Of a stretch of DNA of 64,000 nucleotides, positions 389 through 42,364 are shown in pieces; position 1 is the first letter of the stretch; every line of letters starts with the position of its first letter. A program made the position numbers and the translations under genes. The DNA comes from a virus. The DNA is taken from the IMG/VR virus record IMGVR_UViG_3300032087_003094, positions 1-64,000 of that record; one strand, written 5' to 3'. The notes under the pieces are model-generated. The model saw only the letters and a program-made list of their open reading frames with translations, searched no databases and was not told where the DNA came from.

Positions 389-483
389 CGCGGCTAAGAG
401 CTTGATTGATCCCTTGCTTTCCTCCCTCCCCTTGAGTTAGCCGCGCATTATTTCGATAAAGGGGATAAAAACTTGAGGGGTTA
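389..483 (+). ncRNA. C4-like antisense/leader RNA with downstream targets
   Basis: TATAAT at 376-381; stem 389-397/437-445; internal loops complementary to 459-465 and 475-483. Confidence 0.55.
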
Positions 484-486
484 CAA

Positions 487-999
487 ATGATAGACCTAAA
501 AACCTGCACAAGAGCCGATTTTATAAAGGCTTACACAAACCTAGAAAACTCACATAAGCACCTAGAAAGCGAAGTTCATTATCTTAACGAACGCCTCCAG
601 GAATACGAAGGCATTCAAACTGATGATGAAAAAGAAGCTGAGTTTCAGAAATTCTGGACGATGTATGAAAAGAAAGGAAACCTCAAAACTACTCGCGCTA
701 GATGGAACAAGCTAAGTAATAAGAAAAAGAAGCTAATATTCGACCATCTACCCAAGTACATAAAATCAACCTATAAAGATGCGAGATACCCATCAAGAAA
801 GAACGCAGAAGTCTATATCAGCAAAGAGGCATGGCTTGATGAGATAATCGAGAATAAAGACTATCAGAAGTTTTCACCACAGCCAGCAGTGGGAAGCGCA
901 TCATTTAAGCCAAGCCCGATAAAAAATAGAAGCAAGGAGCTTGAAAGGCTTAGAGAGGAAAGTAAATCGGTCAACATTAAAGAGAGGTTAGGATTATGA
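487..999 (+). CDS. Putative phage replication protein (initiator C-terminal-like domain)
   Basis: FQKFWTMYEKK...KNAEVYISKEAWLDE resembles the C-terminal motif of phage replication proteins; homolog in B. Confidence 0.55.
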   Translation: MIDLKTCTRADFIKAYTNLENSHKHLESEVHYLNERLQEYEGIQTDDEKEAEFQKFWTMYEKKGNLKTTRARWNKLSNKKKKLIFDHLPKYIKSTYKDARYPSRKNAEVYISKEAWLDEIIENKDYQKFSPQPAVGSASFKPSPIKNRSKELERLREESKSVNIKERLGL

Positions 1000-35466: not shown

Positions 35467-35514
35467 GCCAATAAAGAATATTGCTTAAAGCCGCAAACCC
35501 GCTCGAAATTAAAT

Positions 35515-35543
35515 TTGACAGCGGGCATTATTTTATCTATCCT
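35515..35543 (+). promoter_or_regulatory. Sigma70-like early promoter
   Basis: TTGACA-17-TATCCT; the -35 lies inside a CCCGCT...AGCGGG inverted repeat. Confidence 0.55.
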
Positions 35544-35572
35544 ATTACTACAGTAATTAATGAGGAGTCAGA

Positions 35573-35752
35573 ATGATAAAGAAAAGAGGTCCAAAACGAT
35601 TAACCGAGGATGAGCGCAGAAAGCGATTTCAGATGGTTGTATCGCCAGCTACATCAGAGTGGCTAGAATCTCAACCTGAGGCCGCTGGAAGGGTTGTAGA
35701 TAGGTTGGTAGAGAATCATCGAATCAAACAAGACTACGACAGTAAGGGGTAA
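35573..35752 (+). CDS. Small ribbon-helix-helix-like protein
   Basis: GAGGAG RBS; hand translation MIKKRGPKRLTEDERRKRFQMVVSPATSEWLESQ. Confidence 0.55.
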   Translation: MIKKRGPKRLTEDERRKRFQMVVSPATSEWLESQPEAAGRVVDRLVENHRIKQDYDSKG

Positions 35753-35865
35753 ATTATGAATAACGAGCAAGATAACGCAACAGAGGGTCAAGTAAGCCTA
35801 TTATGGCTAGGATTAATTGCGCTAGGATTTTGGTTAAGCGCATTATTTATAGGGTGGTTAGTGTC

Positions 35866-36315
35866 ATGAGAACCATTCAAAGCAGAATACAGCACTGTAA
35901 AAACAGAGTTCCGATCGCCGCGCCAAAAGTTGAAGAAAGCGCAAAGCTTCAAGCTGATGTGGACGCGTGGCTAGCGAAGGGTAACGAGATTTACGACGCT
36001 GATAAAAAAGAGGCTAATTTCAGGAATGATATTGAAAAATCTCGAGCCTACAAAAGGCGCACCAAGCCAGTATTAAACCTATCCATGTGGCGCTTTAGAG
36101 GTGAAGATACCATCCTAACCACTAAAGATATGGTCAGAGTTTTAGAGTGCTCCAGCGATTGGGTTGTGACTGAATACACTAAGAAACATCTTATTCCAGC
36201 GCCCTATAAAATCAGAGATTTAGATGGAAAAGTAAAAATAACCAAGAAAAATCACAACGCCAACTATTGGAAGTTAGGCGATTTAATTAAACACAATAAG
36301 GAGCTAGAAAAATGA
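35866..36315 (+). CDS. Hypothetical protein, possible excisionase-like HTH C-terminus
   Basis: ILTTKDMVRVLECS..LIPAP..YWKLGDL pattern. Confidence 0.45.
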   Translation: MRTIQSRIQHCKNRVPIAAPKVEESAKLQADVDAWLAKGNEIYDADKKEANFRNDIEKSRAYKRRTKPVLNLSMWRFRGEDTILTTKDMVRVLECSSDWVVTEYTKKHLIPAPYKIRDLDGKVKITKKNHNANYWKLGDLIKHNKELEK

Positions 36316-38148
36316 GACAATCAACCGAACTAAGCAACTTAGTCGCTAGGCACCTGCAAGGCCAAGTACCACCTACCGTAGTCAACGAGTTTAACAAGCT
36401 AATTGTAAAAATGCGTAAAGATGAATCAACTATTGCGGATGCTGTGGATAAGTTTGAAGCTATCCACAACCCTCAAGTTGGAGCAAACAACCTAAACGGT
36501 GAAATTCTTAAGGGGAAGCTTTTTGAAATTTAGACTTGAATCGCTCGTGAAGAGCTACAACAAGCCTAAGAAGCGCGATATAGAGAAAGACGTAGAAGTT
36601 ATCGATTTAGAAGAGAAAACGCCGTCAGAGCCAGATTTCGAGCTTGCTGACGCCATGATAGAGTATTCTAGGGAGAAATTATGAAAGATGCTATTTTAGT
36701 TGTGCTAATTGTCTTTACGGCTGCTCTTAGCTTTATCTTTGGTGCGATATGGGAGCAGAGGCAAAATTTCAAGAAAGGTCGCCAACCAACATGCCAAAGC
36801 GAATTAAAAGACCCATGCCAAGAGATACACGGGTTAAACACTAAAGGCATGCGAGATTACAAGCCTAAGTATGACCGTAATTTAAAACAAGTAGTATTAA
36901 CATGTGAGGTGGAGTGATGAGAAGCGCGATAATCGGGTTTTGTATAGGCTTATTGGCTACAATGATTGCTTTTCTAGCGGTTCTCACTTTCAGGTTTCTG
37001 TTGATTGTCAATTTTGGCGACCCGCAGCAGCCAACATGCCAAAGCGAATTCAGCCAGCAAATCAACCAGTATCGAGTATGGCCAGAATATCCCACACAAG
37101 GGAAAGCGGCCTAATCGAATAGTCATTGAATGCGAGGATAAGTAGATGAAAATAGAAACGAGAGCAACTTTATATGATTGGGTAGAGTTTAAGGTTGAAT
37201 GTGGTAGCACAGTAATTAACGAGGATATTCATCCAGAGCAGGCGGCCGACCTAATTGAGCAGCTTGAAAGCGCTATAGACGATCTAAAAGGGCTAGCTAG
37301 AGAGGTTGATGTTGAAGAGATATTCGCAGGGACCAGAAAGAAAGTCGAATCTTTAAATATTAGAGGATAACAAACAATGAGCATAGAAAACCATAAGTGG
37401 AGTGATGAAGATTTAAGTCTTTTTGACACCTCTGAATCTGAATATGCAGGGTTATTATTTAGCCTAAGATGCAATTCTATCATGAGTTCGTTTAGCGATT
37501 TTTACATCAACAAACAAGACGCCATAGCTATAGCCAAACACTTTAACGTAGACAATGAGTCTCTAGTGGAGGGTATAAAGGAGTTGATTAACTCTGTTGA
37601 CTGCTCGTCTTGCTGCCCAAACACAGAGGTATTCTCAATTGACGACCTACAAAAACTAATAACTAAGGAGGATATAGAAGAATGAGTAATGTAATAGAGT
37701 TTCCGCAAACTGATGTTGAGTATATATTCAACAGTACTGGCGAAATTGTAGAGTCAATTATCATCGATTTATCAAGACTAAAAAGCATCGAACTAAGAAG
37801 GGATGAGTCAGACGAAGTCAGAGGCCGCATAACTAGACTGTGTATTGCTTGGCTAGCTTTAGAGAATCCAGAGGTATTAAATTTTGATGATGAATTAAAT
37901 GAGGAGGATGGAGAGTGAATGATATAGAGTTTATTATCTTGTGGTTTTTGTCTGGATTTTTGCCATTTTTATTATCAGGGATTGTGATGGAATCAAGAAG
38001 CCCTAAAATTGATTTTGAGTTGGTGTCGCTTTCGATTTTGTCTGGCGGCTTTGGATTTTTATCGTTTTTTTTATTTTTTCCAGTATTTATATTTATTTGC
38101 TTCCAAAGGGTATTCTTTTTTATTAATGATAGGAGGGCTAGACAATAA
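36312..38148 (+). CDS. Run of small coupled hypothetical ORFs (36312-36533, ~36523-36684, 36681-36917, 36914-37114, 37146-37370, 37377-37685, 37682-37918, 37915-38148)
   Basis: Overlapping stop/start codons; several have TM segments. Confidence 0.6.
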
Positions 38149-38309
38149 CCAAGAATGAGGTATAATTAAAAGGCTGATTGAAACCGGCGTCAAGAATCAC
38201 AAAACGAGAAAGAGACTTTAAGTAAGAATCCAGAAGCCTAGTTGTTAAATCGTTTTGTGTAACTAGAGATGCTTGTTTCAACTGGGTTCTTTCTTAAGGT
38301 CTTTTTTTT
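38139..38309 (+). promoter_or_regulatory. Promoter with attenuator-like long hairpin terminator
   Basis: TAGACA-16-TATAAT; ~20-bp stem 38214-38233/38282-38301 followed by T8. Confidence 0.65.
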
Positions 38310-38331
38310 CGCCTCAAGTTTCCTCAGTAAA

Positions 38332-38786
38332 TAGATGATATATGTGGTGGAGTTAGTTGTAACCGTGGCGCGCGGATATAGTTACATGCTGGCAATGGCC
38401 TTATTCAGTTGACTAGACCGGCCTAGCTCCCCTTCATATATCATCTACAATTAGCATATCAACGACCACTTGTCACAGATTGGGTTTAAGTCCCTTTTGG
38501 AGATAACTGGCGGGAATATTAATTCCGACGATGCCGTTTCAATAGGTGACGTTGATATGCTAATTGACAAGTCCTTAAGAATTTAGATTCTTGTTCAGCA
38601 AAAAATGAAAATGAATGCCTATAGCTAAAGGCTTTAAACAGCAAATTTACAAAGTTTTACATTTTCTACTTATCACTACGACATTTAGACCGTGGACAAA
38701 GCAGGTTAAGTTGATGTGCCAACTATCTTAAGCTGGATATCGGAGCGACAACTCTAAAAACTGTTCTGCATATTGAGAGTGATAAG
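38332..38786 (+). ncRNA. Candidate structured ncRNA or origin: three long stem-loop domains
   Basis: Inverted repeats of 13+, 17 and 9 bp in an ORF-free region. Confidence 0.5.
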
Positions 38787-38850
38787 AATATAGATTTACC
38801 TTTATATCAACTAAAGGTCTAATGACCACTATTAACTAAAGGAAAACAAT

Positions 38851-39108
38851 ATGAAAGTAGAAGAAACACTGAAAGAGCGAGGAGAGCGATACGGAAGCTT
38901 TGATGGTTATGCACTGCAATTAGAAGCATTGAAAAATGCGGTTGATTTGGAGGCTTCGTCACTTAATTGTGTGCACAAAGCCGGAATGGAGATGATATTA
39001 ACTAAAATAGCTAGGATTATGAATGGCGATCCTGATTATGTTGATAACTGGCATGATATAGCTGGATATGCAACATTGGTAGAAAGAGATATTGAAAAGA
39101 ATTTTTAA
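38851..39108 (+). CDS. DUF6378-like protein
   Basis: TLKERGERYGSF..KIARIMNGDPDYVDNWHDIAGYATL. Confidence 0.8.
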   Translation: MKVEETLKERGERYGSFDGYALQLEALKNAVDLEASSLNCVHKAGMEMILTKIARIMNGDPDYVDNWHDIAGYATLVERDIEKNF

Positions 39109-39127
39109 CTAAATAGGAGATAAGAGA

Positions 39128-39553
39128 GTGATAGCAAACGTAATGGTAAAAAAGAATATTGATGTTAAGTACCTAAAGGTTTCGGCGAATGTTCGATATT
39201 GGGGAGATTCAGAAATTAACGGCGAAATGTCAGATGATGAAGGTGAGGGAGTCCCGTTTAAAAATGCAGAGTTATGGGAGCCTGTCATTGATGTTGATAA
39301 AGGGGCGGTTTGTGACTGGCCTATTGGTACTGTAGCAAAATTTCATTTTAAGGTTTGCGATGCTGGCAGTTACTATTTGTTGGATGATAACTTTAATGAA
39401 TTGTTATCAAGGGTAAATAATTACGTTCCTGACGGTTTATGTCATGGCGATGAAGGATATGGGGATTATATTATTTTTGATGTAGGGCAGGACGGCTGTA
39501 TAGTTAACTATTCAAATAAAATTAATATTGAAGATTGGGAAGGAGAGCAATAA
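39128..39553 (+). CDS. Hypothetical protein
   Basis: Its 3' end is duplicated at window positions 1-94. Confidence 0.75.
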   Translation: MIANVMVKKNIDVKYLKVSANVRYWGDSEINGEMSDDEGEGVPFKNAELWEPVIDVDKGAVCDWPIGTVAKFHFKVCDAGSYYLLDDNFNELLSRVNNYVPDGLCHGDEGYGDYIIFDVGQDGCIVNYSNKINIEDWEGEQ

Positions 39554-39555
39554 CA

Positions 39556-39804
39556 ATGAGTAACAAGTGTAAAAATTGTGATTCAGGTATTTATTGCCAT
39601 GATTGCGGGGTGTGTGGAGAGTGTCACACTAGAAAGATATGGGTATTAAAAGAGCAAATAGAGCAACTACAAAAAGAGAATGAGGAAAGCTTTAGAAAGG
39701 GTTTTTGGGCTGGATATGAAGACGCTAGATGCTTTCCTGATGAAAATAACATATTGCAGCGCTATGCAGCTCTGACTGAAAATAGGAATAGCAATGACCA
39801 ATAA
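39556..39804 (+). CDS. Hypothetical Cys-rich protein
   Basis: CxxC-rich N-terminus joined to the C-terminus shared with 100-345. Confidence 0.7.
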   Translation: MSNKCKNCDSGIYCHDCGVCGECHTRKIWVLKEQIEQLQKENEESFRKGFWAGYEDARCFPDENNILQRYAALTENRNSNDQ

Positions 39805-39848
39805 AATAATAATACACAACCAGTCAAACTAGTTTATAATACATATAC

Positions 39849-39927
39849 GCGGCTAGGTTTAGCGACCGAAAAACAAACCCCTTATTTGTTTGCCGCTCAT
39901 ATTTCATAAGGGCTGATGCTAAAGGAG
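39849..39927 (+). ncRNA. C4-like antisense/leader RNA with downstream targets
   Basis: Three-way junction; loops TTTAGCG and CCCTTAT pair with TGCTAAA and ATAAGGG next to the RBS. Confidence 0.65.
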
Positions 39928-39933
39928 CGTTAA

Positions 39934-40447
39934 ATGATAGATCTAAAAACCTGCACAAGAGCCGATTTTATAGAGGCTTACACAAATCTAGAAAACTCTC
40001 ACAAGCACCTAGAAAGCGAAGTTCATCATCTTAACGAGCGCCTGCAGGAATACGAAGGCATTCAAACTGATGATGAAAAGGAGGCGGAGTTTCAAAAAAT
40101 TCTGGACGATGTACGAAAAGAAAGGAAATCTCAAAACTACCCGAACTAGGTGGAATAAGCTAAGCAATAAGAAAAAGAAGCTAATATTCGACCACCTGCC
40201 AAAGTATGTGAAATCAACCTACAAAGATGCTCGATACCCATCAAGAAAAAATGCAGAGGTCTACATTAGTAAAGAAGCATGGCTTGATGAAATTATTGAG
40301 AATAAAGACTATCAGAAGTTTTCACCACAGCCAGCGGTAGGAAGCGCATCATTTAAACCAAGCCCGATAAAAAATAGAAGCAAGGAGCTAGATAGGCTTA
40401 GAGAGCAGAGTAAATCGGTTAACATTAAAGAGAGGTTAGGGTTATGA
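39934..40447 (+). pseudogene. Frameshifted homolog of the 487-999 replication protein
   Basis: One extra A in the run at 40094-40099 splits the ORF. Confidence 0.8.
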
Positions 40448-41788: not shown

Positions 41789-42364
41789 ATGAAAACAACA
41801 TTAGGTAAGATTTGGGAGTTCGGTCCTTGCTGTAGAGAGGATGAGTCTGGCGGGTGGGGTTTGCTAACTAAAAACTTAGGAACTAGCGATCACTCAAAAG
41901 AAGTTGATTTGATGGAAATATTAAAATCAAACGGAATTAAAGATGCAGTTTGGGCTTTAAGATGTTTTGATTATCTTGATTATTGCCTTTTTCTTGCTGA
42001 TGTTGCAGAAAGCGTACTTGATATTTATGAGAAGAAAAACAGTTCAAGCGCTCCGAGATTAGCAATTCAGGCAGTTAGAGATTATAAGGCTGGAGGTATA
42101 ACAAAAGAAAAATTACGATCTGCTGCTGATGCTTATGCTGCTTATGCTGCTGCTGATGCTTATGCTGCTGCTTATGCTGCTGATGCTGCTTCTGCTTATG
42201 CTGCTGCTTATGCTGCTTATGCTGCTGATGCTGCTTATGCTGCTGCTGATGCTGCTGCTGATGCTTCTGCTGCTGCTGATGCTTCTGCTGCTTATGCTGA
42301 TGCTAGATCAAAAAAATGGGATGAAATAGAACAATTATTCATTAAGCATTTTGGAGATAAATAA
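41789..42364 (+). CDS. Ala-rich low-complexity phage protein
   Basis: ADVAESVL..PRLAIQAVR followed by an A/D/Y/S tract. Confidence 0.75.
   Translation: MKTTLGKIWEFGPCCREDESGGWGLLTKNLGTSDHSKEVDLMEILKSNGIKDAVWALRCFDYLDYCLFLADVAESVLDIYEKKNSSSAPRLAIQAVRDYKAGGITKEKLRSAADAYAAYAAADAYAAAYAADAASAYAAAYAAYAADAAYAAADAAADASAAADASAAYADARSKKWDEIEQLFIKHFGDK
42121..42304 (+). repeat. GCT-based coding microsatellite
   Basis: Only GCT, GAT, TAT and TCT codons. Confidence 0.95.

Follow-up and report, generated by a model that had tools for sequence, protein, structure and literature searches.

Probable int-alpA-class leader RNAs at two sites of a marine podophage record: one anti-Shine-Dalgarno loop, two boxes and a probable role in translation in cis

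Two sites, A and B, in a 64,000-nucleotide (nt) stretch of viral DNA (positions 1 to 64,000 of the IMG/VR virus record IMGVR_UViG_3300032087_003094; the whole stretch is called the window below) each carry a small structured RNA directly before homologous copies of a gene, which at site A encodes a protein of 170 amino acids (aa). We consider it rather probable that both RNAs are cis-acting translational leaders of the int-alpA class, C4-like or P4 CI-like in logic only, site B being a regular int-alpA member and site A a divergent form that the Rfam model misses. In both, a closing stem and two hairpins form a three-way junction, and the loop of hairpin 2 (loop 2) faces two complementary sites downstream: box 1, a putative decoy, and box 2, the Shine-Dalgarno sequence. 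Judged from sequence, the leader RNA most likely sets how much protein is made. int-alpA is a catalogued motif without an assigned function, and the data give a concrete, testable mechanism built from one anti-Shine-Dalgarno loop, a decoy and the true ribosome-binding site, all changing together. They also show the class to reach beyond what the Rfam model detects and, if the mechanism is confirmed, would point to compact, reprogrammable translational control modules exchanged between phages as cassettes.

The pairing rule emerges from the family as a whole. Bacterial genomes and viral contigs were sampled with the canonical stem pattern of hairpin 2, which gave 176 places, and 41 non-redundant representatives were left after requiring the closing stem and removing duplicates. 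At least two separate downstream sites complementary to the hairpin 2 loop were present in 40 of the 41 members, with box 1 at +5 to +13 and box 2 at +17 to +27 from the closing stem; most start codons fall at +28 to +37. The sequences of loop and boxes vary in step: UCCUGUU is found with AACAGGA twice, UCUCGG with CCGAGA and CGAGAGG, CCCCGAUU with AAUCGGG and UCGGGG, CCGUG with CACGG and ACGG, and CCUUGA with UCAAGG and CAAGG. Loop 2 matched its own leader with a longest Watson-Crick run of 5.54, compared with 4.47 for non-own leaders, and with a duplex energy of -8.4 compared with -7.0 kcal/mol, the own value being reached by 0 of 10,000 permutations. When loop and leader were anchored independently of complementarity, by aligning the final CC in the loop with the first GG in the leader (MAFFT misaligns the register of box 1), 106 of 117 flanking positions were Watson-Crick complementary, compared with 59% after permutation (0 of 10,000), and four pair types occurred at positions 2 and 3. 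An initial annotation of the window had proposed two loops acting on two targets; in the family one loop, loop 2, matches both boxes. The three-way junction covaries as well: across 35 sequences 91.7% of cells were paired, compared with 71.3% when shuffled. Both partners had changed in 13 pairs, and the observed value was approached neither by the shuffles nor by any slid register. Double changes were seen in seven of the eight closing-stem pairs of the family alignment.

Box 2 coincides with the Shine-Dalgarno sequence. In 28 of 37 members it is displayed by the loop of a small hairpin whose arms covary. Box 1 directly adjoins this Shine-Dalgarno hairpin in most members, and its matches to loop 2 equal or exceed those of box 2 (6 base pairs, bp, compared with 4 bp in B). 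Both observations would suit an activating pseudoknot, in which pairing of loop 2 with box 1 opens or positions the ribosome-binding site and the leader serves as an enhancer, the complementarity of box 2 being a by-product of both boxes resembling Shine-Dalgarno sequences; so would a downstream gene that resembles part of a replication initiator. There is a precedent in ColIb-P9 repZ, where translation requires a pseudoknot that a distinct antisense RNA, Inc, blocks. As in that system (PK-repZ), a leader hairpin loop here pairs with sequence beside the ribosome-binding site of a possible replication gene; the ColIb-P9 pseudoknot activates, however, whereas here no Inc-like partner was found and there are two boxes instead of one, and the Rfam scan of the whole window returned no sequence or model similarity to PK-repZ. 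We regard the activating version as unlikely, given that no regulatory antisense partner was found and that in several members those flanks of box 2 that are not Shine-Dalgarno sequence also follow the loop (AACAGGA twice, UCGGGG, ACGG), which argues that box 2 is also selected for pairing.

At site A, the parts of the leader are the following, all folds being minimum free energy (MFE) folds.
376-381, + strand: -10 box TATAAT, read from the sequence.
389-445, + strand: three-way-junction RNA (MFE fold, -18 kcal/mol).
389-397 with 437-445, + strand: closing stem of 9 bp, 8 nt after TATAAT.
398-401 with 416-419, + strand: hairpin 1, with a 14-nt loop at 402-415.
422-424 with 434-436, + strand: hairpin 2, with a 9-nt loop at 425-433.
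425-433, + strand: hairpin 2 loop CCUCCCCUU, the anti-Shine-Dalgarno loop, complementary to 459-465.
459-465, + strand: box 1 (putative decoy) AAGGGGA, starting 14 nt past the closing stem.
475-480, + strand: box 2, the Shine-Dalgarno sequence GAGGGG, 6 nt 5' of the ATG at 487.
487-999, + strand: putatively controlled gene, 170 aa, from the list of open reading frames (ORFs).

At site B, they are as follows.
39835-39840, + strand: -10 box TATAAT, spaced from the closing stem just as in A.
39846-39912, + strand: int-alpA RNA (Rfam RF02996), the match extending 3' through box 1.
39849-53 with 39892-96, + strand: closing stem of 5 bp (MFE fold).
39856-59 with 39864-67, + strand: hairpin 1, GGUU-UAGC-GACC, loop UAGC (MFE fold).
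39871-77 with 39885-91, + strand: hairpin 2, loop CCCCUUA at 39878-84 (the MFE fold equals the Rfam structure).
39906-39912, + strand: box 1 (putative decoy) AUAAGGG, complementary to loop 2 and fitting the Rfam tail 'uaAgGG'.
39914-39932, + strand: Shine-Dalgarno hairpin UGAUGCU-AAAGG-AGCGUUA (MFE fold of 39845-39940).

Every motif that the initial annotation had located in A and B was confirmed from the sequence, namely TGATCCCTT at 407-415 (within the hairpin 1 loop), TCCCCTT at 427-433 and GAGGGGTTA at 475-483 in A, and TTTAGCG at 39858-64, CCCTTAT at 39879-85 and TGCTAAA at 39917-23 in B. The ATG of B is at 39934. Its view that promoter and gene are homologous also stands, with 83% identity between 1-999 and 39457-40447. 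The element had been called antisense; it lies on the same strand as the gene and is therefore a 5' leader, antisense only in the sense in which C4 is. Both core folds consist of a closing stem and two hairpins (z = -3.25 in A, equalled by 0 of 200 shuffles; z = -1.74 in B), and the closing stems start identically, with ACGCGGCUA. Counted zero-based from the closing stem, box 1, box 2 and the start codon lie at +13, +29 and +41 in A and at +9/10, +25 and +37 in B. The parts of both sites follow one another in the same order and with the spacing of the family, box 1 of A falling within the family range. Box 2 of A can occupy the loop of a weak AAC/GUU hairpin (472-482), and in B the loop of the Shine-Dalgarno hairpin and the bases next to it contain box 2 (AAGG, 39922-25) as well as the whole Shine-Dalgarno sequence (AAGGAG, 39922-27). 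In the int-alpA members L010-L185, as at 39914-39932 in B, the segment made of box 1 and the 5' arm of this hairpin is repeated directly but imperfectly, over about 12 nt, by box 2 with the 3' arm.

In A, loop 2 pairs with box 1 (459-465) over 7 bp (duplex -11.3 kcal/mol), and its CCCCUU can, as read from the sequence, form 6 bp including one G-U with GAGGGG at 475-480; in B, loop 2 and box 1 form 6 bp (39878-84 with 39907-12, -7.3 kcal/mol). The initial annotation's proposal that a structured RNA at the start of the transcript pairs through a hairpin loop with its own leader, ribosome-binding site included, is borne out for the hairpin 2 loop, whose pairing with the proximal box covaries family-wide, and not supported for loop 1. 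That loops and targets 'differ together' is likewise true of loop 2 and its boxes across the family and weak for A and B themselves, for UCCCCUU/AAGGGGA in A and CCCUUA/UAAGGG in B have the core CCCUU/AAGGG in common and differ in the extended flank. The two had further been taken for alleles that would not cross-react. By predicted duplex energies, however, loop 2 of B binds the leader of A better (-10.5 kcal/mol) than its own site (-7.3 kcal/mol), so A and B are not orthogonal and their orthogonality as alleles is not supported; loop 2 of A reaches -6.4 kcal/mol on the leader of B.

Site B is recognised by the Rfam model RF02996, int-alpA, with 46.0 bits compared with a gathering score of 35.8 (E = 2.5e-6, whole window). 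The features in common are the closing stem, CUAG, the small hairpin 1, CGAAAA, a CCUU-type hairpin 2 loop and the tail UAAGGG; the junction of B reads CUAG, CGAAAA (between hairpin 1 and hairpin 2) and UUG, where the family pattern is CUAG ... CGAAAA ... CUG. The Rfam consensus has 'aaCCuUua' as its hairpin 2 loop and 'uaAgGG' as its 3' tail, so the second loop-target pair of the initial annotation was already part of a known model. A C4-like family, which that annotation had suggested, was not found: the C4 model RF01695 matched neither the 301-nt stretches around A and B at E<=10 nor the whole window at E<=5, and neither isrK nor any other Rfam family matched at A. Of the relatives introduced below, L002 and L006 (A-type) and L003 (B-like) gave no Rfam match at E<=1. 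A candidate isrG at 42215-42297 (23.5 bits, threshold 100, E = 0.029) is probably a chance match. int-alpA reportedly comes from the candidate set of Weinberg et al. 2017; no published function for it was found in the literature searched, where its mentions do not concern function. The setting here is not an integrase-alpA region: the RNA stands in an early operon that belongs to a marine podophage of P22-like type.

Six relatives of the gene were found in IMG/VR, of which L002 and L006 have an A-type leader, L003 has a third form and three have no leader. Three leader forms thus precede one gene in closely related marine phages, and Rfam recognises one of them. A three-way junction was found in the MFE folds of A, B, L002 and L003; in L002, hairpin 2 is ACUC/GAGU with the 9-nt loop CAUCCCCUU. 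The leader of L003 (1144-1206 of IMGVR_UViG_3300031841_003125) is a third allele before the same gene. It keeps the loop 2 of B (CCCCUUA), both boxes and the Shine-Dalgarno hairpin in a nearly identical leader sequence, and it differs from B in the hairpin 2 stem and by a compensatory change of the closing stem from GCGGC/GCCGC to GCGGA/UCCGC. Its hairpin 1 is long and very unlike that of B (GUCGG-AUUGCAACC-CCGAU), and the conserved junction is largely missing. No further relatives came from a blastn search of the phage GenBank collection with 300-1000, from genome contigs searched with the 170-aa protein, or from metagenome scans for the gene by DNA pattern and by protein; a profile of 14 homologues run against viral contigs added only L194 (without leader) and L195 (a fused form).

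These relatives also bear on hairpin 1, whose loop the initial annotation had paired with the ribosome-binding site. In B the loop TTTAGCG named there is not a loop as a whole, because the hairpin 1 loop has 4 nt (UAGC) and three of the seven bases belong to the stem. The hairpin 1 of B, GGUUUAGCGACC, recurs identically in L034 (a Hwanghaeella genome) before an unrelated leader without GCUAAA; L003 has the same leader as B with another hairpin; and L006 has a C-to-A change inside the loop 1 match of A with the target unchanged. TGCTAAA is kept in L003 although its supposed partner loop has been replaced; its conservation is explained by the Shine-Dalgarno hairpin, to which it contributes the 5' arm and the loop. 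In the family, hairpin 1 showed a Watson-Crick run of 4.0 with its own and 3.77 with other leaders, and 410 of 10,000 permutations reached the own value. Across the family, covariation is seen for loop 2 with the boxes and not for hairpin 1 with the leader, while the A type, with its three copies, leaves more room for loop 1 pairing. We also noted that hairpin 1 comes in a few recurring types with the conserved loops UUAGCG, AUUGCAAC and UUCGAAAC (L034, L063, L041, L129) in distant hosts, the L003 loop AUUGCAAC being found again in L063; this recurrence suggests a tertiary or protein contact. Since hairpin 1 has almost no preference for its own leader and its types recur, it seems to serve as a structural module rather than as a second loop for specificity.

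The failure of loop 1 also counts against a trans-acting antisense RNA of the C4 or P4 CI kind, about 55-60 nt long, which would be released by processing or termination, would accumulate and would repress incoming or sister transcripts through the boxes; the version of the initial annotation has two loops, each acting on its own target, and treats A and B as heteroimmune alleles that differ in specificity. C4 and P4 CI themselves are precedents, int-alpA carries the type sRNA in Rfam, U-rich tracts follow the closing stem in both A and B, and the long loop 1 of A has a CCCUU that could form 9 bp with 475-483 (-11.0 kcal/mol). We nevertheless rate a trans-acting RNA as distinctly unlikely. The C4 model does not match, loop 1 pairing breaks down in the 4-nt loop of B, in L034, L003 and L006 and in the permutations, and the preference of B loop 2 for the A leader is the opposite of orthogonality. 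The boxes keep a tightly fixed spacing, for which an RNA acting in trans would have no use, and a consensus scan of 1-1200 flagged no terminator-like site. A -10 box located 8 nt ahead of the stem points to a 5' end that is primary, for which no 5' processing would be needed. The context does not suggest an immunity role either, since the listed long ORFs of this P22-like podophage all lie on one strand, and the claim of two-loop, C4-like heteroimmunity alleles does not hold. A further proposal would make the A type a new structural class derived from int-alpA, in which both loops (402-415 and 425-433) carry an anti-Shine-Dalgarno CCCUU and clamp both boxes simultaneously in a C4-like manner, the cassette from the conserved -10 box to the start codon being swapped between co-occurring phages as a specificity module and acting also in trans on a competitor's transcript; we think this a rather remote prospect.

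C4 is a three-stem RNA cut by RNase P from the leader of the operon that it represses, its b' loop occluding the ribosome-binding site and its a' loop giving specificity (PMC5320573). The C4 RNAs of P1 and P7 (RF01695) and the leaders described here are alike in being small multi-stem leader RNAs with a loop that pairs with the ribosome-binding site of the next gene, and in that loop and target change together between relatives (PMC5320573). They differ in that C4 is a trans-acting RNA, freed by RNase P, with two loops (a' and b') for two adjacent boxes, whereas here one loop serves two boxes, the C4 model does not match and loop 1 pairing is not conserved; C4 also sits before icd/ant-type antirepressor genes, whereas neither antirepressor nor immunity context is found here. 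In P4 CI RNA one antisense sequence acts on two sites, seqA and seqC, causing premature transcription termination (PMC4825925), and the likeness lies in one antisense sequence, two sites in the same transcript and the control of a replication gene, a putative one here (PMC4825925). There, however, seqA lies upstream and seqC downstream, and a processed trans RNA terminates transcription. By layout we rejected identity with P4 CI, both boxes here being downstream, one of them being the Shine-Dalgarno sequence, and no terminator being found in 1-1200.

The most conserved positions of the family are the unpaired junction bases, among which C, G, A and A are invariant in 43 sequences. Together with the few recurring hairpin 1 types and their conserved loops (for example AUUGCAAC in L003 and L063), this could mean that a protein or small molecule is bound by the invariant junction (CUAG, CGAAAA, CUG), with the loop-box pairings as the expression platform of a factor-sensing leader, as in a riboswitch or an autoregulatory leader bound by protein. 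Such a leader seems very unlikely to us, for the loop-box layout is kept in A, where the junction is lacking, and in L003, where most of it is. The leader also precedes two different operon compositions, in A and in B, which makes a single metabolite signal unlikely.

Several points weigh against reading A and B as cis-acting int-alpA-class leaders. The sampling pattern fixes the hairpin 2 stem, so the sample is biased, and the permutation statistics are inflated because the family members are related. Site A gave no Rfam match in 300-600 even at E<=10, and its junction reads CUAAG, without the conserved CGAAAA. The fold of A is without covariation support because just three near-identical A-type copies are known from the collections searched, which included scans for the A-type and promoter patterns; the support for its three-way junction is thermodynamic only (z = -3.25), whereas B stands inside the family covariation alignment. 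A and L003 have the int-alpA layout and loop-box rule although the model does not detect them, and A differs from int-alpA in lacking the conserved junction and in the 14-nt loop on hairpin 1. Rfam types int-alpA as 'Gene; sRNA', and loop 2 of B pairs with the Shine-Dalgarno sequence over only 4 bp (CCUU/AAGG), as in the similar member L177. Both the action in cis and the sign of regulation are deduced. Lastly, none of the loop-target duplexes of A and B beat those in shuffled leaders (2000 dinucleotide-preserving shuffles per leader; p 0.08-0.42, with 0.19 and 0.42 for loops 1 and 2 of A and 0.08 and 0.16 for loops 1 and 2 of B). As the matches at single loci are not beyond chance, the question had to be decided with relatives.

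The shuffles would agree with there being no regulatory pairing at A and B at all, merely a C/U-rich loop that meets G-rich sequence by chance, with the 5' structure stabilising the mRNA, as 5'-terminal stems can do. We consider this extremely improbable in view of the family-wide covariation of the loop with both boxes, the place of the B box 1 within a conserved Rfam model and the family spacing kept by A, B and L003.

What is observed of the mechanism is the fold, the complementarity, the covariation and the fixed geometry. We propose that transcription, directed by the TATAAT 8 nt upstream, would begin where the closing stem begins, and that the junction RNA would remain attached to the mRNA. 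Pairing of loop 2 with box 1 would then form a decoy pseudoknot that leaves the ribosome-binding site free, whilst pairing of loop 2 with box 2 would be a loop-loop contact that blocks the 30S subunit and hence initiation. The balance of the two states would set translation of the first gene of the early operon, and it might be shifted by cotranscriptional folding kinetics or by a factor binding the conserved junction. Action in cis is favoured because the box spacing is fixed, because no terminator follows the closing stem and because the -10 box lies at the stem base in A, B, L002, L003 and L006. All five have the spacing TATAAT-N7-CGCGG in common, although the upstream sequence of L006 is otherwise different. 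In A, the putative promoter element TATAAT predicts a transcript start at about 388, 1-2 nt 5' of the closing stem; a consensus scan flagged no -35 box there.

The gene had been called a replication gene, and this label is weak because the 170-aa protein matches PHROG 270 and 9474 only at E ~1e-4, over the part that corresponds to the C-terminal region of replication initiators. It has no Pfam match, and none of its 18 homologues has a name. The protein might be a free-standing C-terminal domain of replication initiators. By eye, a counterpart of residues 46-120 seems to lie inside a longer reading frame in L195 (701-916 of IMGVR_UViG_3300024265_000144), which would fit such an origin. In B the homologue of the gene is split by a +1 frameshift in the ORF list.
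39934-40447, + strand: gene homologue of B, as ORFs 39934-40149 and 40070-40447.
The split lies at 40090-40101, where a run of A has one extra A (caaaaaattctgg, compared with cagaaattctgg in A), and it could reflect a +1 frameshift, a sequencing error or a pseudogene. Downstream of the leader gene, A has a PAPS-reductase-like gene and B has small ORFs followed by a DNA methyltransferase gene.

The record is a 74.5-kb IMG/VR entry from seawater, of which L186 is the part 64001-74480; a search of sequencing runs listed no RNA run containing the stretch. It consists of two related mosaic genomes of about 35-39 kb, joined head-to-tail at the same point and carrying P22-like portal, head and DNA-transfer genes; the tail of the record, 70611-74480, matches 35495-39247. 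The join may represent tandem prophages or an assembly join of two strains, and given the latter possibility A and B need not share a cell. Among the sequences L130-L185 are many IMG/VR contigs of about 16 kb, enterobacterial-looking and satellite-sized, with near-identical int-alpA RNAs; these have the loop AAACCCUA and the boxes UAGGG and GAGGGU and stand before at least three different first genes.

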